Below are positions 6,003 to 64,000 of a stretch of DNA of 64,000 bases, piece after piece. The translations under genes were made by a program, and so were the position numbers. The DNA is from Escherichia phage JS98. Location of the stretch: sequence record NC_010105.1, one strand, 5' to 3'. The notes beneath the pieces were generated by a model. The model worked only from the letters and a program-made list of their open reading frames with translations, ran no database searches and had not been told where the DNA came from. Position 1 is the first letter of the stretch. Each line of letters begins with the position of its first letter.

Positions 6003-6032
6003 TTTATTTTCCTCTCATTTGTTGATAGGGTA

Positions 6033-6062
6033 ATAGTATCACTACCCTACCGTATTGTATAC
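6033..6062 (-). promoter_or_regulatory. early-type promoter (variant -35 GTATAC)
   Basis: minus strand GTATAC-N18-TACTAT followed by conserved CCTATCAAC leader. Confidence 0.4.
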
Positions 6063-11919: not shown

Positions 11920-12488
11920 TAAAAATCCAACATTTTTAAATGAATTATTTTGTACTCGATGTCGTATGGGTCTCTTTTGATAGTTTCGATTTCAACAATC
12001 TCAAATCGTGATAGGCTAGAGACCATGAACTCACATTCGGTTTCGACCATATCATAGAGGTCAATACGGGTTTCATCTATTTCAAGTTCGTCCGCACTCC
12101 CTGCAAGAACAAGGTCGATAGCATGATTGTAGTAGTCAAAAATGAAGGGTGCATTCCTGAGACTTAAAATGGTTTTGGTTCCATATTCCCATGACCCTGC
12201 GAACTGGCAAGCCTGAGAGTATTGTGTACTAAAAGAAGTAACCCGGCCAGGAGACCATTGACATCCTACTGAAAGGAGCTCTAATTGCCCAAGTTCTCTG
12301 GTGGTAATCCCACGATAAAGCTCTACCGGAACCACTGAAGTGACATGCTTACGAACCAGTTTGTCTAGGTCGTAATGGAAGTTAGGGTCTTTTTTGGCAT
12401 CCAGACATTTCTCTAACAACGCTTGTTCAGATTTTGAAAATTTGGAATTGATTCGGTCTTGATAAAGACATTTTTGTTCGATGTTCAT
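11919..12488 (-). CDS. modB: ADP-ribosyltransferase, ModB-like
   Basis: 189 aa; LYRG, TSFST and ECE motifs. Confidence 0.65.
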   Translation of the reverse strand: MNIEQKCLYQDRINSKFSKSEQALLEKCLDAKKDPNFHYDLDKLVRKHVTSVVPVELYRGITTRELGQLELLSVGCQWSPGRVTSFSTQYSQACQFAGSWEYGTKTILSLRNAPFIFDYYNHAIDLVLAGSADELEIDETRIDLYDMVETECEFMVSSLSRFEIVEIETIKRDPYDIEYKIIHLKMLDF

Positions 12489-12540
12489 ATGACCTCCAGT
12501 GATTTAGAGGTCATTATAACATGAAGGGAGGAGGTGTAAA

Positions 12541-12795
12541 CTACTTAAACACACCGAGTGGGACGCCAAACACCGCAATGTCAGCGGCTTGGCCTGTTAG
12601 GGATTGGGTATATGAAGTATAAGAGCTTTTTGTTTCATAAGAGCTTTTTATTTCCGGCGCCTTGGCCGTAATCTTAGGAGCTTTTGCCTGAATATTTTTT
12701 TGCTCGATTTCCTTACGGGCTTGTTTACGGTCGATATCTAATGCCGATGTAGGTATATTAGTTAGCCAATTCATTATTTTACCCAAGGTGCCCAT
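12541..12795 (-). CDS. hypothetical protein
   Basis: 84-aa ORF. Confidence 0.35.
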   Translation of the reverse strand: MGTLGKIMNWLTNIPTSALDIDRKQARKEIEQKNIQAKAPKITAKAPEIKSSYETKSSYTSYTQSLTGQAADIAVFGVPLGVFK

Positions 12796-14451: not shown

Positions 14452-14685
14452 TTAAACAATATCGGTAGGCGTAAACATCGCCGCGTTCTTAGTTCGCCAA
14501 TCGGCTGCATCAGTCACTACAGTAGTATAGGCTGCAACGGCCGAAGGGAAAGTCTGATAATGAGCATTGGCAATACGATGCTCATTTGAATAGATTTCAA
14601 ACGGAACTGAAACCTCAGTACCTTTAACTTCTTTACCTTCACCGGCTGGATGCGTAAAGGTTTTGATATTAACGAAACCACCCAT
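14452..14685 (-). CDS. soc: small outer capsid protein Soc
   Basis: 77 aa; GFVNIKTF...AHYQTFPS matches T4 Soc as recalled; SD AAGGAG. Confidence 0.85.
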   Translation of the reverse strand: MGGFVNIKTFTHPAGEGKEVKGTEVSVPFEIYSNEHRIANAHYQTFPSAVAAYTTVVTDAADWRTKNAAMFTPTDIV

Positions 14686-14716
14686 AATTAACTCCTTTGT
14701 TGTTTAATTACAGGTG

Positions 14717-14724
14717 TATTTATA
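14717..14724 (-). promoter_or_regulatory. late promoter TATAAATA upstream of soc
   Basis: plus tatttata = minus TATAAATA, about 30 nt upstream of soc ATG. Confidence 0.5.
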
Positions 14725-17903: not shown

Positions 17904-17931
17904 TTTTAACTCCTCATTAGTGGATAGGTCT

Positions 17932-17961
17932 ATAGTATCACTACCATAGACCGATGTAAAC
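17932..17961 (-). promoter_or_regulatory. early promoter
   Basis: GTTTAC-N18-TACTAT. Confidence 0.55.
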
Positions 17962-17962
17962 T

Positions 17963-32208: not shown

Positions 32209-32907
32209 TTAGAACGAGTGGCTTGAGCCTGCTTCCATAGCTAATACATAAGAAGCTTGTGTACCTTCAAACTTAGCTGCAAATCGAGCATCCTGACCTT
32301 CACCGCGTGCCCATAACAACACATGATAATCGGCTGGCATCATTTTCATATTGGTTTTGTTAATGATGAACTTAAAGTCAGGACCATCATGGTCAGCCAC
32401 GACCAGAGAATACAATGGACGAGTTAATTCTTTATCGTCGACTTGTTTATAACCATTGATAACAATTTTACCATCGTCTACAGTGATTGCAAATGTATCA
32501 ATACTCAGACCAGAGGACACACGCATCAACTGTTGATAATCTTCGGCTTTCAAATCGAAAATAACTTCAGCCACAGGGAACGGAATAGCTTTACTTGGGA
32601 ATGCGATTGTGCTTGGGTCAGCAATAGGCCACTTAATTGTTGAACGTTGGTCTTTAATAATTAATGTGGTTTGGTCTTCACTTACCGAAACTTCAGCACT
32701 TTCTGATACCAAAGACAGAATACTTAAGAAGCCATTCAAATCATAGATTGCCGCTTCGATATCGAAGGTATCACTTACAGTGGCTTCACCATAACTTGCA
32801 CCGGTAACAGATCGGGTCAGAATGGTGTTACCTGGTTTAAGCATAATGCCTGGGTTAATACCGGAGAAGTTTTTAAGAATGTTCAGGGTTTCTTTAGAGA
32901 ATTTCAT
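32209..32907 (-). CDS. 45: sliding clamp gp45
   Basis: 232 aa; collinear with T4 gp45 as recalled. Confidence 0.9.
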   Translation of the reverse strand: MKFSKETLNILKNFSGINPGIMLKPGNTILTRSVTGASYGEATVSDTFDIEAAIYDLNGFLSILSLVSESAEVSVSEDQTTLIIKDQRSTIKWPIADPSTIAFPSKAIPFPVAEVIFDLKAEDYQQLMRVSSGLSIDTFAITVDDGKIVINGYKQVDDKELTRPLYSLVVADHDGPDFKFIINKTNMKMMPADYHVLLWARGEGQDARFAAKFEGTQASYVLAMEAGSSHSF

Positions 32908-37709: not shown

Positions 37710-37937
37710 TTAATCCTTGTAATTCAGTTTTATATAAAAATCTTCGTCGGTAACGTGATAGTTATAAGTTAATGTTCCTTTTTCAGCTTTAATTTCTACC
37801 GAATCAGGGTGTTTTGGGTCTATTACAATAGGAAGCTTGGCAATATCCTTAAGATACATTTTAAGAACATAAGGAATTGCCGAATACTCTCCATCTACTT
37901 CTTCTAAAAGGCCTACCAGGTTAATCTTGAGTTCCAT
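37710..37937 (-). CDS. hypothetical protein
   Basis: start placed at ATG 37937 ([10 protein letters not shown]). Confidence 0.4.
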
Positions 37938-38478
37938 ATAAAAAATCCAGCTCACCAACTTTAGATTCAGCGCTCTTATCAGACCCTGGCGCTTTAACTA
38001 AAGAGGTTTCATACTGAGTCATTTTGTCGTAAATATCCTGGATAAAAGTTTCATCTGCGATACCTACCATGTCGTCGTCATTGGCGTCATAAACGTTATG
38101 GACGAAGTAGCTGTATTTCTTTGCCATTTCTTTACGTTCTTTCTTGATACGCTGAACAAAGGCATTAAAACAAGCCATAGTGATATATGCATGTGGGTTG
38201 TCGTATTTTGTTTCGTCGAAGTTATGAAGACCTTTAATAGAGGCTTCGATTCCATCAGCAATCATTTCTTGCTTCCAAGATTGGGTATATCCGGAGAAGT
38301 TGAACCGCTTAGAAAGGCCTTCAGCAATGAGCATAATAGCCAAGCCGATAACGTCGTTCTGACGAACTATTTTATTAGGGTCGGTATTTTCTCGGAGTTC
38401 CGTTTTCCACTGGGTAATGGCTTTCAGAAGCTCCTTATTATTTACATAGTTATTTTTAGTCAGTTTAATTTCGGTCAT
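37921..38478 (-). CDS. 55: late sigma factor gp55
   Basis: 185 aa; NYVNNKELL...[36 protein letters not shown] near-identical to T4 gp55 as recalled. Confidence 0.93.
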
Positions 38479-56300: not shown

Positions 56301-56759
56301 TTAAAGATAGATTACTTTCGTGCTGGTTTTACCTTCTAAACGTTTAGAGTTAACAAATGCCATACGACATTTTAATGAATATCCTTTATCAGGATGTTTA
56401 CGATCTACGGTCATACCCAACCATAAGGTTTTATCGGTAATCTCGAGACGCAGTGGACGATACACTTTACCTGGGACAATTTCAGATTCTACGTCAGGAA
56501 GAGGCTCCTGGATTAAAAATTCATGGATTTCTTTAACATGATTGTGGAGCTTCTTGAACAAAGAGAAAACATATTTTTCGTCAATTTCACGTTGGATAGC
56601 ACGGTCCAACAAGTGATTAGAGTACTTAATAAAGAAAGCTGGGACACCGCTCTTAATGGCGGCTTTTTTGATGGACGCGTTAAGTTCACGAAATTCGGTT
56701 TCGAACTGACGACGTAATTTGTTGCGGCGGATGAATACTTCTGAATTAATTTCTGACAT
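56301..56759 (-). CDS. regB: RegB endoribonuclease
   Basis: start re-placed to ATG 56759 (MSEINSEVFIRRNKLRR) with SD AGGAG; matches T4 RegB as recalled. Confidence 0.88.
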   Translation of the reverse strand: MSEINSEVFIRRNKLRRQFETEFRELNASIKKAAIKSGVPAFFIKYSNHLLDRAIQREIDEKYVFSLFKKLHNHVKEIHEFLIQEPLPDVESEIVPGKVYRPLRLEITDKTLWLGMTVDRKHPDKGYSLKCRMAFVNSKRLEGKTSTKVIYL

Positions 56760-59124: not shown

Positions 59125-59523
59125 TTATTTGTAAGTTTTCATCCAATTCTTGAACAGAGCTGCAACGTCTTTCTCTTTAACGTTCAATTTAACGTCCAGC
59201 ATTTTGCCACCGGCGGCACGTGTCTGACGAATCTTGGCCGTACCGGTTTCGCCATTCCACTCAACATAATACTGCCCGGTGTTCATAGCGATACCATCGC
59301 CATAGTCTTCGTTCTTAGAAGTAGTGAATGCCAACTTCATGGTCTTAGAGACACGGGCCTGCATGCCTGTCTGCAGAGCGTTACGAACGCGAATAACCTG
59401 AGGAGTGGCCTGGGTTAGGTTCTCGTTCAGTTCTTCGGTGAACTCTTCTGATTCAAACATTGCCAAAAGTTCAGCGGGCGCCGGGATTACAGCTTCGGCG
59501 ATAAATTCATTATAAGTTTTCAT
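59125..59523 (-). CDS. capsid internal protein with N-terminal capsid-targeting sequence
   Basis: 132 aa; MKTYNEFIAEA leader. Confidence 0.65.
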   Translation of the reverse strand: MKTYNEFIAEAVIPAPAELLAMFESEEFTEELNENLTQATPQVIRVRNALQTGMQARVSKTMKLAFTTSKNEDYGDGIAMNTGQYYVEWNGETGTAKIRQTRAAGGKMLDVKLNVKEKDVAALFKNWMKTYK

Positions 59524-59563
59524 ATAGGTCCTTTAAAGGTAAATGTGTTTAAGTATAGGCTTA

Positions 59564-60160
59564 TTAATTACCACGGGCTGCATTAGCAACGGCGTAAGCG
59601 TACTGAATATTAGCGTCTTTAAACGTACCTTTAGAGGTATCTAGTTCTGCCTTAAAGCCGGCCTTAGTCATAACATCGGCAAATTCTTTACGGAAAGCCA
59701 TTGTATCAAGACCTTTCCATGCTGATTTATGCTTGGCAAATTCAAGACCAGCGAAGTTGACTGCTTTAGCCAATTTATTATCAATAGTCCATTTACCTGC
59801 TTTAGGTACAAATACCGGACCTTTCTGTTTAGAGAACAGTTTTAAATTCCAGCGACGAAGGTCGCCGTCGGCTTTAACAAAAGCTGCGTCCAAGTTACTA
59901 GCAACAACATCTTGAATATGGCCAAATTTAAGCCCATCAGCTTCAATATTTAGGTCGTTACGCCAGCGAAGTCCTTCCCAGGCGAAAGCTTTAAAGTCGG
60001 AAGCTTTTGTAGCTAAATACCGTTCAATAGGAGCTGTTTTAGCGTCAAAGCCGTTTCCTGGGTTGTCAACGCCGTTTCCTCGGTAGGTCCACTCATCTTT
60101 ATTAATGCCTTTGACCTTTCCTGCAGTAGCTTCGGCGATAAATTCTTTATACGTTTTCAT
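59564..60160 (-). CDS. capsid internal protein (IPIII-like)
   Basis: 198 aa; MKTYKEFIAEA leader. Confidence 0.7.
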   Translation of the reverse strand: MKTYKEFIAEATAGKVKGINKDEWTYRGNGVDNPGNGFDAKTAPIERYLATKASDFKAFAWEGLRWRNDLNIEADGLKFGHIQDVVASNLDAAFVKADGDLRRWNLKLFSKQKGPVFVPKAGKWTIDNKLAKAVNFAGLEFAKHKSAWKGLDTMAFRKEFADVMTKAGFKAELDTSKGTFKDANIQYAYAVANAARGN

Positions 60161-60212
60161 ACGGGTCCTTCAAATGTAAATATTTAATTAGTCTGTTCAA
60201 GTAACTGTAGAT

Positions 60213-60241
60213 ATACTATCACAATTCTAGGAGATGTAAAC
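60213..60241 (-). promoter_or_regulatory. early promoter (GTTTAC-N17-TAGTAT)
   Basis: upstream of IPIII-like gene. Confidence 0.5.
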
Positions 60242-60246
60242 TGCTT

Positions 60247-60735
60247 TTATCTATAAGCAGCCCAAGTACCTGTTTTAAAGGTGGCAATAACACGCTTGGC
60301 ACGATTCGGGGTTTGCTTGTACCAACGAGACTGCGCCAGGTTAACTGCGGCATCATCCCAACGTTTCTGTTGGAGCATACGCAGAGAGTTGGTAAATCCT
60401 GCTACACCAGCTTCGCCCATTTGGAAGACCATATTAATCAATGCGCAACGACGAACTTCGTCCAACACATCATAAACCGGTTTCAATTTAGGATTGCGCA
60501 TTATAGCTCTACGAGCATTTTCCACTGAACGATTAAAGAGCTGTTCAGCTTCAGCCATAGTAATACGACCATTACAAACTCGACCCATAAGCTTATCAAG
60601 TTCAGCGCGAGCAACATCTTTAGATGGGTTCTTGGTAACTAACTGGCCTATACCAATAGTCCAATAACCTTCAGTGTCTTTATAAAGATTTAAATCAAGA
60701 CCTTCGTCTTGACGTAACATATCAAAAATATCCAT
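60247..60735 (-). CDS. e: lysozyme (endolysin) e
   Basis: 162 aa; [30 protein letters not shown] and C-terminal two-thirds near-identical to T4 lysozyme as recalled. Confidence 0.95.
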
Positions 60736-60766
60736 AATTACCTCCTGATTATAGGAGGTATTTATA
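60736..60766 (-). promoter_or_regulatory. late promoter TATAAATA plus SD-sequestering hairpin upstream of e
   Basis: minus strand TATAAATA-CCTCCT-ATAATC-AGGAGG-TAATT-ATG; inverted repeat pairs with the SD. Confidence 0.6.
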
Positions 60767-61216
60767 TCAAAAGAGCGAATCTAAAACCTTAAACATCGAC
60801 GGGCCCATGACATATTCCCATTGCGGACGTTTAATCAAAGCGAAAGCGTCGAATTCCGGAATCGTACGACCATCAGGGAACGTATGGTAAGCTGTACATT
60901 TGCAATTCTTGAACTGCTCGTGTTCGACAGGCACAGTATATAAGAACAGGTGTAGATTCTTATTGCTTGAATATTTGAACTCACCTAGGTCTTTCAGGAA
61001 CGCAGGGTCGTATGCCGTGAATCCAATCTCTTCTTCGGTTTCACGCATTGCTGCTTGAATAGGCTCTTCACCTGGTTCGACATGACCTTTAGGAATGTCC
61101 CATTTATGACGCATGTTCTCTGGATTACGAGAGCCTGTTACACGACCCATAACCAATTCTTTATCGGCGGTCATGAACAAAATACCAGCAGATAGTTCTT
61201 TCACTTTCTTACTCAT
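60767..61216 (-). CDS. nudE: Nudix hydrolase NudE
   Basis: start re-placed to ATG 61216 (MSKKVKEL); Nudix box [22 protein letters not shown]. Confidence 0.85.
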
Positions 61217-61445
61217 CGTCTCGTTCCCATGATTGTTTAAAGATATCTCGTATAATAATTTCAACACATGTTTCTGTTGACGGACTTTCACTATCAGATA
61301 TTTGGACCATATAATCAGAAATAGGTCGGAACAAATCCAAGTCACTTTCTAAATCTTCTTTGATTTTCTCTTCTGATGTCCCGGTGTCATAGGAATACAG
61401 ATAAGAATCGCATGACTCGGATTTAATATAAATCGCAATACTCAT
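61209..61445 (-). CDS. hypothetical acidic protein
   Basis: 78-aa ORF. Confidence 0.35.
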   Translation of the reverse strand: MSIAIYIKSESCDSYLYSYDTGTSEEKIKEDLESDLDLFRPISDYMVQISDSESPSTETCVEIIIRDIFKQSWERDDE

Positions 61446-62029
61446 TTACGGCATTCCTCAATAAAAGAGTTTAATGTATTTTTCTTAGTGATATCGTCAT
61501 ATACCTTTTTAACTTTAGAAATACGAAAAGGTACTTCAATAACTGCAGTCCATAAAAATGATGCGATAAGTCCTAAGATAGCCGCAGACATCGCTGAAGC
61601 AAATAGCGTAATAGGCAGGTCATTATCCGTTGTCAGGAAAAACCCTAGGAGTGGGAAAAATAATATCCCCATCCAAACATAGAACCTAGAACTCACTAAT
61701 TTGTCGTATTCATCACTCCATGTACGAAAGCCGTATTTTTTGCTATAACAAATCAATGGGTCTGGTGTCTGTTCTTTATGGGGTTCCGGTTGCCAACCAT
61801 TTACGATATAGCCCATTTTATATTCCTCAATTAAAAGTTGTTTCATTTCAGCAGTACAACCCGACCAATCTATTGTACTGGCTGAAATTCCTTCATCGCC
61901 ATCATCAATATTTCGCCATGACTTTTTAATAATCATATTCTCACCACTTGGGATAATGATTCCGGCATTTTCGGGCCGACGGATGAAGTTTACATCAACA
62001 CCCATACAACCCGGTTCATAAAGGGCCAT
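61442..62029 (-). CDS. hypothetical membrane protein
   Basis: 195 aa; two C-terminal TM segments. Confidence 0.45.
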   Translation of the reverse strand: MALYEPGCMGVDVNFIRRPENAGIIIPSGENMIIKKSWRNIDDGDEGISASTIDWSGCTAEMKQLLIEEYKMGYIVNGWQPEPHKEQTPDPLICYSKKYGFRTWSDEYDKLVSSRFYVWMGILFFPLLGFFLTTDNDLPITLFASAMSAAILGLIASFLWTAVIEVPFRISKVKKVYDDITKKNTLNSFIEECRK

Positions 62030-62715
62030 TACCAGCCCTCCATAGGGAATTCCAGATATACTTGGGCATTAACGCGGATTTCATTTGTAATCTTTTTAAC
62101 ACGGTCTGTATTACGAGACACACGACCAAACCAGCGCCAGCCATTACTTACTGCACGAGAACCTGTATGCCATGTCTGCCAATCAAACTGGAGCAATGTG
62201 CGGTCAGGAGCATCCCACTTGGTTAATTCATTAGACTCAATTTTTTCCAGAACTTCTTTATGCCACTGGCGATAGATAAGTTCGCCTTCAGGAATCTGGC
62301 TAAATTGTACAGTTCCGGTTGCAAAATAAGTAGGACACACATCAGCGTTAACAAGACCAAGAATATGTTCAGAATGGTATCGAGGATTATCATAATCAGG
62401 TTGCCCTGCAGTAATAAAGTGTTGACCAACTGGAATATCCGGACGCGGTACATCATCATGGTGATAACCTGGGATAGCAGGATACCAACCAGGCATAAGC
62501 ATATGAACTCGAGAATCAAATACAACCTGGTCGGTGTTCCAATCGTCCGGCAGGTTCATGATGAAGCTGCGAGTAATAGGACCACCGTTATCAAAAGCGA
62601 AGGCCAACGAACTGTTGAAGAACATAGTTTCGTTTTTGATTTTATCGTTAGAAATTTTACCGGCAAAACTACCTACTGCACGAGCTTGAGAATTAAAAGT
62701 TTTCGGGCTGTTCAT
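62029..62715 (-). CDS. hypothetical protein (His-rich motifs)
   Basis: 228-aa ORF. Confidence 0.45.
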   Translation of the reverse strand: MNSPKTFNSQARAVGSFAGKISNDKIKNETMFFNSSLAFAFDNGGPITRSFIMNLPDDWNTDQVVFDSRVHMLMPGWYPAIPGYHHDDVPRPDIPVGQHFITAGQPDYDNPRYHSEHILGLVNADVCPTYFATGTVQFSQIPEGELIYRQWHKEVLEKIESNELTKWDAPDRTLLQFDWQTWHTGSRAVSNGWRWFGRVSRNTDRVKKITNEIRVNAQVYLEFPMEGW

Positions 62716-62729
62716 AATATTTTCCTCAA

Positions 62730-63020
62730 TTACTTTTTGTTGAAAAAGTACATTTTACCTTTAGGGGATAAGGATACACGAAGTGCGTTACCGATACCAA
62801 CTGAACATTTAACCAGGTCAGCAGATTTCAATTCACCAAATGCTTGACGAAGGTCACCGTCACGAGTGTTAACCATCAGGCATTTAGCACCAGCTGCACG
62901 AACTTCGTTTAACATGTTGATTGCTTGGTTAGAAAGTTTCATTTTATTCTCCATTTCACTCTGTTGTTTTGATAGGTCTATAGTATCACACCTATAGACC
63001 TTGTATACTGTTTTATGCAA
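62730..63020 (-). CDS. hypothetical protein
   Basis: 96-aa ORF; start uncertain. Confidence 0.35.
   Translation of the reverse strand: MHKTVYKVYRCDTIDLSKQQSEMENKMKLSNQAINMLNEVRAAGAKCLMVNTRDGDLRQAFGELKSADLVKCSVGIGNALRVSLSPKGKMYFFNKK
62981..63009 (-). promoter_or_regulatory. early-type promoter (variant -35 GTATAC)
   Basis: GTATAC-N17-TACTAT. Confidence 0.4.
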
Positions 63021-63980
63021 TTATTTTGTGAAAGGACGAATTAAATGTTGGTTATCTTGGAACCGCTTGATGTAGTCATTTTCACCTAGCGTCTTATACA
63101 TATTCACTACAGCTTGGTAGTTTTCCCAGGCATACTCGCGGAACCAGCCTGAAGTGATTGAGGTACACACTTTCTCAAGAGCCATATAGAAACTTAACGA
63201 TGGTGAAATATTGAAGTCATTAGGAACCTGTGAACGTTCTAGGGCCAACACACAAGTTTCTTCATATACGCCAGCCAGTTTAATAGCTTCAGGCAAAGCT
63301 TCAAACTTCTCGCGTGAGGTCATGACTTCAGAACCGTCTTTCATATAAAAGGTATACGCTGGGCGTCCAGCCAATGCCACAGCTTCATGGATAGAGTCAT
63401 GGTCTAATGTATAAATGGTATCATTAAAGAACGATGATTTGTTTACATCCAATTTAGGATGAGAATAGCTCAACGTTTCTTTCTGGCGTTGCAGCATGAT
63501 TTCTTGGAGCTCTTCATTCAAGGTTACACCTTTATTACGAAGATATTTGATGTGGGACATCGTCTTCAAAAAGAACGGGTTGTTCTTCAAATAACGATGG
63601 CTCATTTTGATGGCCAGACAGATATCAGGTGTGGCCCAATAGAAACCCGTAAGACGGTCCTTTTTAATATGATTTTCGGCATATTTCAGGAGACGATAAC
63701 TTGAGGTGAAATCTTCGTCCTGAAGCTCGCCGGTGATTTCTCGTACGTTAGTCAGGGCACGGACGATATAAGCTTCAAAATAGGTTTCTTTACCATTGTA
63801 CATACATTTAAAGGCCTGGACATCAGGATTATCCACAGGAACATGGGCACCGAACATCCGAGCTTTAAAGTGATTCCACGAGCCTTGGTCGGCAATAAAA
63901 TCCCAATCAGAATTTTCGATATACTTACTTTCAATCAGACCAGCGTGGTGCAGTGCACGAGAACCAATAACTAGCATCAT
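63021..63980 (-). CDS. hypothetical protein (possible minimal nucleotidyltransferase fold)
   Basis: 319 aa; N-terminal GSRALHH...SDWDF resembles GS...DxD. Confidence 0.4.
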   Translation of the reverse strand: MMLVIGSRALHHAGLIESKYIENSDWDFIADQGSWNHFKARMFGAHVPVDNPDVQAFKCMYNGKETYFEAYIVRALTNVREITGELQDEDFTSSYRLLKYAENHIKKDRLTGFYWATPDICLAIKMSHRYLKNNPFFLKTMSHIKYLRNKGVTLNEELQEIMLQRQKETLSYSHPKLDVNKSSFFNDTIYTLDHDSIHEAVALAGRPAYTFYMKDGSEVMTSREKFEALPEAIKLAGVYEETCVLALERSQVPNDFNISPSLSFYMALEKVCTSITSGWFREYAWENYQAVVNMYKTLGENDYIKRFQDNQHLIRPFTK

Positions 63981-64000
63981 AATATTTTCCTCATTAATAA

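Follow-up and report, generated by a model that had tools for sequence, protein, structure and literature searches.

The lysozyme gene leader of Escherichia phage JS98 as a probable orthologue of the T4 gene e translational gate

The leader of the lysozyme gene e in Escherichia phage JS98, in which a late promoter lies inside a hairpin predicted to sequester the Shine-Dalgarno (SD) sequence, is very probably the orthologue, in a JS10-like Dhakavirus, of the translational gate of T4 gene e. This reading draws directly on the sequence anatomy of the leader, its predicted thermodynamics, the orthology of the locus, a design conserved in several genera, and the finding that gp55 and gp45 are encoded in the window, that is, the whole stretch of 64,000 nucleotides analysed here (NC_010105.1). 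The hairpin and late-promoter mechanism was reportedly shown for T4 gene e by McPheeters et al. in 1986 (NAR 14:5813). The JS98 gate is thus an already described device, known for T4 and extended to related phages by a 2010 review (PMC3014915).

Under the proposed mechanism, early and middle transcripts crossing nudE into e would contain the whole 60766-60733 segment, which would fold into a 13-bp hairpin pairing both the SD and the AUG; 30S subunits would bind the hairpin RNA poorly, and lysozyme would not be made early. Late in infection, RNA polymerase carrying gp55, gp33 and gp45 would use the TATAAATA box, itself the base of the 5' arm, and transcription starting at about 60753 would give an 18-nt leader devoid of the anti-SD arm. 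The ribosome-binding site (RBS) of this late RNA would be ordinarily accessible, and e would be translated. For early read-through RNA, for the position of the late start and for the magnitude of the effect on translation, this account follows the experiments on T4.

If so, the T4 device for timing lysozyme synthesis post-transcriptionally is conserved in Dhakavirus and in at least five other T4-like genera. The result is of use for late-promoter annotation and for the engineering of T4-like phages, for example in timing the expression of a payload; it has little importance beyond annotation and opens no new question.

Locus, sequence anatomy and transcription of the e leader

The window belongs to a T4-like phage of the genus Dhakavirus (family Straboviridae, subfamily Tevenvirinae). 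Gene e (60247..60735, minus strand) encodes a T4-type soluble lysozyme of 162 aa (PF00959 Phage_lysozyme, E 6.5e-13) that is 100% identical to JS10 e, and the open reading frame preceding it is nudE (e.1; 60767..61216, minus strand), a Nudix hydrolase gene (PF00293 NUDIX, E 2.6e-15) whose product is 99.3% identical to JS10 NudE. The order nudE-e-ipIII-denV is syntenic with the JS10 annotation, which runs ...regB-denV-ipIII-e-nudE-e.2...

The minus strand from 60769 to 60733 reads TGA-TATAAATA-CCTCCT-ATAATC-AGGAGG-TAATT-ATG, in letter-by-letter agreement with the initial annotation. The nudE stop codon TGA (60769-60767) adjoins the T4-type late promoter box, an exact match to TATAAATA at 60759..60766 that occupies promoter positions -13..-6 and forms the base of the hairpin 5' arm; the earlier description of a late promoter embedded in a hairpin therefore holds. 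The 5' arm, UAUAA-A-UACCUCCU (60753..60766, minus strand), is common to the minimum free energy (MFE) and centroid structures and ends in the anti-SD core CCTCCT (CCUCCU in RNA; 60758-60753), which is, as had been claimed, the exact reverse complement of AGGAGG. A 6-nt loop, ATAATC (AUAAUC in RNA; 60747..60752), separates it from the 3' arm, AGGAGGUA-A-UUAUG (60733..60746), which comprises the SD AGGAGG (60746-60741), the spacer TAATT (60740-60736) and the e start codon ATG (60735-60733). Together with the flanking T (60753) and A (60746), the loop reads TATAATCA (60753-60746), a degenerate counterpart of the second late box of T4 with 2 mismatches. The JS98 leader thus has a single TATAAATA box and not the tandem late promoters of T4, which are a T4-specific detail that the mechanism does not require.

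Use of TATAAATA promoters requires gp55 and gp45. Both are encoded in the window on the minus strand, as found by tblastn: gp55, the late sigma factor recognising TATAAATA (37924..38478; 185 aa), and gp45, the sliding clamp and late transcription activator (32212..32907; 232 aa), each with 100% identity to its JS10 counterpart, so that the machinery reading such promoters is present; gp33 lies outside the window. In T4 late promoters the box occupies -13..-6, and relatives often have A in place of its first T (PMC1524935). This rule would place CCTCC of the e leader at -5..-1 and the transcription start at about 60753, the sixth nucleotide after the box. Since the anti-SD arm occupies promoter positions -5..+1, late transcripts would lack it: the predicted late mRNA retains 1 of the 14 nt of the 5' arm and has a leader of 18 nt.

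Early read-through into e is plausible, given that the minus strand from the window end to e (59400-64000) holds no terminator-like site and that an early-promoter-like sequence lies upstream. The latter is a candidate T4-type early promoter, GTATACA ... TGaTACTAT (62975..63010, minus strand), read directly from the sequence and below the threshold of the consensus scan; it is situated upstream of the e.x-nudE-e gene string and is a possible source of early read-through transcripts. A consensus sigma-70 promoter scan upstream of e returned counts at chance level.

The same search bears on the idea that the palindrome, followed by TTTATATCAA (the complement of the box), is an intrinsic terminator for plus-strand, antisense transcription. 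It is the sole terminator-like match in 59400-64000 (60739-60760, plus strand; 9 pairs, 4 of them G-C), and the covariance model of e leaders described below also gave a weak plus-strand match (17 bits, E 0.58). The T tract, however, is short and interrupted, and since it follows automatically from the box it adds no independent information; one match is fewer than the 3.5 expected from shuffled sequence, and 74 of the 75 candidate genes are on the minus strand, with no plus-strand gene upstream or nearby and hence no transcription unit that obviously calls for an end. On neither strand does the e leader combine the G+C-rich stem, direct U tract and transcription-unit end of a Rho-independent terminator, and we consider a primary role in antisense termination extremely improbable.

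Predicted structures of read-through and late transcripts

The MFE fold of 60766-60730, (((((.((((((((......)))))))).))))), contains 13 bp at -14.3 kcal/mol, and the centroid structure is also the 13-bp hairpin. Dinucleotide-shuffled sequences averaged -5.6 kcal/mol (z = -4.08), and none of 200 was as stable. Five nucleotides of the late box are in the stem, where UAUAA pairs with UUAUG, so that the start codon is sequestered as well as the SD. The initial annotation was accordingly right about the hairpin and too narrow about its extent, which it had confined to the 6-bp SD/anti-SD core: the 13-bp stem takes in both box and AUG.

In RNAs whose 5' ends lie 60, 150 or 300 nt upstream of the ATG, the pairing of the 5' arm persists, the predicted probability that the SD is unpaired is 0.013, and opening the region from SD to AUG would cost 12.4-12.7 kcal/mol, in line with the earlier proposal that read-through transcripts fold the SD into a stem. 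For RNAs starting at 60754-60750, 5-9 nt past the box, that probability rises to 0.29-0.39 and the predicted opening cost falls to 3.4-3.9 kcal/mol. Folding of early versus late 5' UTRs, which had been put forward as a check, thus gave the expected outcome, the opening cost dropping from ~12.5 to ~3.5 kcal/mol. Transcripts initiated past the box would indeed lose the anti-SD arm; the further statement that their SD is left free was too strong. With late-leader opening costs of 3.4-5.4 kcal/mol overall and a window median of ~4.7-4.8 kcal/mol, the SD of the late RNA is predicted to be only as accessible as that of an average site in the window, not fully free.

The hairpin is strong but not unique on energy alone, and it is the conjunction of its elements that is rare. 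The 37-nt MFE of the e leader falls in the top 0.3% of all minus-strand 37-nt windows, a range that includes 30 distinct places as low, and the e RBS ranks 5th of 75 candidate sites by SD-to-AUG opening energy (11.3 kcal/mol, against a median of 4.7). The TATAAATA box is not enriched in the window (4 observed versus 6.2 expected), and all 4 occurrences are on the transcribed strand. The full design, defined as ATAAATA, 0-2 nt, CTCC, 3-16 nt, GGAG, 4-10 nt and ATG, has a single occurrence in the window and turned up in 1 of 400 dinucleotide shuffles. Rfam 15 covariance models had no match at E <= 1 to 60500-61000 on either strand.

These figures can be set against the view that the hairpin is a by-product, in which a late box and a strong SD, each selected separately, happen to be complementary, and the resulting hairpin forms and is irrelevant to the timing of lysozyme synthesis. 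The lack of TATAAATA enrichment is compatible with such a coincidence, as are the presence of several other genes with equally or more sequestered sites and the finding that 13% of the shuffles contain, at some point, the box core followed by CTCC. The rarity of the full design among the same shuffles speaks for a gate instead, and the comparative evidence weighs further on this point.

Comparison with T4 and other T4-like phages

In T4, the structure of the e leader and its late starts have been demonstrated (PMC3014915, section 29 and Fig. 5 legend): early read-through transcripts form an inhibitory structure and lysozyme synthesis is ~100-fold lower, whereas RNAs initiated at either of the two late promoters are missing the 5' strand and are translated well (PMC3014915). 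Similar e leaders, with a late promoter in the region of the 5' strand, are predicted for closely related T4-type phages in the text of the review (PMC3014915, Fig. 5A), in which the names JS10 and JS98 do not appear; the text of a T4 omics paper makes no mention of lysozyme (PMC9697503).

The initial annotation had likened the JS98 leader to the T4 mechanism, and the two are at orthologous loci, with nudE upstream of e and ipIII and denV downstream. The T4 leader reads TATAAATA-CCTTC-TATAAATA-CTT-AGGAGG-TATT-ATG. As in JS98, the 5' arm has a TATAAATA box at its base and, immediately next to it, an anti-SD that pairs with AGGAGG; the AUG is paired too, the predicted late start removes the arm, and the stability is similar (-14.9 kcal/mol in T4, -14.1 to -14.3 in JS98). 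T4 differs in having two late boxes, the second at the position where JS98 has TATAATCA; in its arm CCUUCU, which includes a G.U pair, in contrast to the all Watson-Crick arm CCUCCU of JS98; in a loop of 8-10 rather than 6 nt; and in the spacer TATT, compared with which TAATT in JS98 has an extra A that gives rise to an A.A mismatch and displaces the outer 5 bp. The mechanism itself is experimental in T4 and predicted in JS98. Overall, the differences between the two leaders are minor.

Since T4 has the same geometry, it also informs a reading in which the hairpin mainly ties the translation of e on polycistronic RNA to that of nudE. Ribosomes terminating at the TGA (60769-60767) would then melt the 5' arm and free the e SD, allowing a regulated low level of early expression. 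The nudE stop directly adjoins the first paired base in JS98, in T4, JS10 and AnYang it likewise precedes the box by a few nucleotides, and a comparable sequestered SD is found at a TAATG stop/start overlap at 62029; yet T4 makes ~100-fold less lysozyme from read-through transcripts despite this arrangement (PMC3014915), and the hairpin can refold after the ribosome leaves. We hold it to be quite improbable that coupling is the main function, and such coupling could work alongside the late-promoter bypass. The e leader may possibly have a second role, in coupling of this kind to nudE or in antisense termination.

Within Dhakavirus, JS10 (GenBank EU863409), whose genome has been public since 2008-2009, and phage Ec2-ASingh match JS98 base for base between the nudE stop and the ATG. 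The genus is polymorphic in the spacer at 60738: JS98, JS10 and Ec2-ASingh have TAATT, and TATT is the spacer of dhaeg, AnYang and most of the other Dhakaviruses examined. With the additional A, the continuous 10-bp stem is split by an A.A mismatch into 8 + 5 bp and the helix comes to include the AUG; stability is almost unchanged (-14.3 vs. -14.1 kcal/mol).

For a wider comparison, e leaders were gathered from IMG/VR contigs and from named phages of other genera, resulting in 18 distinct leaders from Tequatrovirus, Dhakavirus, Mosigvirus, Marfavirus, Jiaodavirus, Karamvirus and uncultured relatives. Candidates L023-L030 and L033 were left out owing to uncertain start codons, and L088 (Pseudomonas phage PspYZU05) was dropped as it proved to be gp5, not e. 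All 18 leaders folded individually into a hairpin pairing the GGAG core, with stems of 8-14 bp and, where directly readable, loops of 4-8 nt, and all had [T/A/G]ATAAATA immediately 5' of the anti-SD (CUCC). If the sixth nucleotide past the box is the start, the late RNA would exclude the CUCC anti-SD in 18 of 18; the mean predicted opening cost was 15.0 kcal/mol for early and 4.9 kcal/mol for late RNA, the difference being 5.0-12.5 kcal/mol in every leader. Two Justusliebigvirus endolysin leaders, taken from outside the T4-like group as a negative control, had neither box nor hairpin (-2.4 kcal/mol).

Alignment of 16 leaders with MAFFT and RNAalifold was discarded, having produced a meaningless 5-pair consensus because, with the boxes aligned flush, the two stem classes, CCUCCU and CUCCUAU, are offset by one column. 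The comparison therefore rests on per-sequence folds indexed on the SD and on a covariance-model alignment. A covariance model, R1, built from 8 non-T4 leaders retrieved the T4 leader (L001, 1612-1651) at 47 bits (E 5.5e-8), along with all other e leaders, which bears out the proposed likeness to T4. In the model-fitted alignment the ten core pairs were 92% paired, against 35-65% when the 3' partner was slid.

The SD and anti-SD core arms are nearly invariant, and the ribosome constrains the SD regardless of any hairpin. No strict double substitution was present among the ten core pairs in the covariance-model alignment, for which reason no support from core covariation is claimed; taken by itself, core pairing of this kind would also suit a by-product. 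Compensated differences are confined to the stem extensions: L017 has a clean C-G versus A-U exchange at SD-relative position -4, and L007/L019 have one change that depends on the register. The extension is at the base of the stem (AAUA/UAUU) in T4, Dhakavirus and Mosigvirus, and on the loop side (UAUC/GAUA, UAUA/UAUA or UAU/AUA) in the remaining lineages. The invariant G+C-rich non-coding arm, the variable loops, the lineage-specific extensions and the changes in L017 and L007/L019 together support selection on pairing.

Several of these observations argue against a fortuitous hairpin: the CUCC anti-SD is invariant in non-coding DNA over six or more genera whose loops differ in length and sequence, and different lineages keep the helix with different extensions. 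The DNA immediately 3' of late boxes is normally A/T-rich (PMC2988020), so that CCTCC is atypical at this place, and in T4 both the structure and its effect have been demonstrated (PMC3014915). We therefore judge it very improbable that the hairpin is a mere by-product of box and SD. For the gate, the comparison implies that one late promoter would suffice in these lineages, the constant feature being an anti-SD in the untranscribed -5..-1 stretch of the late promoter.

SD-sequestering hairpins were also seen upstream of distant lysozyme homologues with 40-65% identity (L021, 1150-1195; L035 and L036, ~1150-1200; L037, ~1145-1195), where the anti-SD either precedes or merges with a box-like CTAAATA or CATAAATA (CCTCTTCTAAATA..., CCTCATAAATA...). 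L037 has a second look-alike (1697-1742) at the gene following the lysozyme, AATAAATACCTC...GAGG...ATG, with a model E of 0.24. The 2010 review described Aeh1, 44RR, 25 and 31 as devoid of an apparent e leader structure (PMC3014915); the gate design may reach beyond the phages noted there.

Related arrangements and other sequestered start sites

The closest functional parallels concern homing endonucleases. The late RNAs of T4 I-TevI (td intron), I-TevII/III and segB and of Aeh1 mobE lack an RBS-sequestering hairpin (PMC2988022). As with e, early and middle read-through RNA of I-TevI, segB and mobE cannot be translated, and the inhibitory arm is absent from transcripts of a nearby late promoter (PMC2988022); the genes and sequences are unrelated to e, and the resemblance is one of analogy, not homology.

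T4 soc is known for an inhibitory structure at its translation initiation region (PMC3014915). Similarly to the inhibitory structures of T4 soc and gene 49, JS98 soc (PF16855) has a late box and a sequestered start region (14685-14724, minus strand). The box is at 14724-14717, and CACCUGUAAUUAA, just after it, pairs with UUAAUUAUGGGUG in a 13-bp stem that includes the AUG. The stem differs from that of e in pairing mainly the AUG region, and the predicted late start would remove only part of the 5' arm; the predicted opening cost is 9.8 kcal/mol for early and 5.8 kcal/mol for late RNA. The single soc of the window (14452-14685) is only 35-48% identical to the two JS10 soc copies. Relative to JS10 the window is a mosaic, with e, gp55, gp45, gp49, regA and regB proteins 100% identical; the modB leader region (12380-12600) is 100% identical to phage MN04.

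The most sequestered RBS in the window is that of modB (ATG at 12488; 12483-12545, minus strand), with a predicted opening cost of 17.4 kcal/mol. Its leader reads GTTTACA-16 nt-TATAAT-GACCTC-taaatcact-GGAGGTC-AT-ATG: a sigma-70-type early promoter stands directly 5' of the arm GACCUC, and the hairpin pairs GGAGGUC and the AUG flank. As the promoter immediately precedes the 5' arm, only transcripts from modB's own promoter are predicted to lack the arm and be translatable. The e-leader model matched this leader weakly (E 0.014). Bp7 modB is identical over promoter, hairpin and start codon; VR5 modB shares the layout, with one base of the stem different and 9 versus 10 core pairs; and the layout recurs in T4 modB, where the stem is a different one, GAUAGCUUCUG / CGGAGGCUAUC (-20.3 kcal/mol). 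No description of this promoter/hairpin layout was found in the literature searched. It is conceivable, if somewhat doubtful, that a promoter-inside-5'-arm gate is a general reusable module in these genomes, extending beyond late promoters.

Second in opening cost is the start at 62029 (16.2 kcal/mol), where the SD GGAGGG is paired in a hairpin of -14.7 kcal/mol (62016-62052, minus strand). The hairpin is located at the TAATG stop/start overlap joining a 228-aa ORF (62029-62715) and a 195-aa membrane protein (61442-62029, phrog_2203), and looks like a translational-coupling arrangement. The RBS of regB (start at 56759, minus strand) ranks 4th by sequestration (11.8 kcal/mol); RegB cleaves the GGAG of its own SD (PMC3014915).

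Lastly, three related minus-strand palindromes of -15 to -16 kcal/mol, at 62973-63009, 17926-17962 and 6015-6051, carry a GTGATACTAT motif and read GGTCTATAGGTGTGATACTATAGACC and close variants. GTTTACA precedes the palindrome at 17962 at promoter spacing, and all three look like T4-type early promoters whose extended -10 region would be inside the palindrome.
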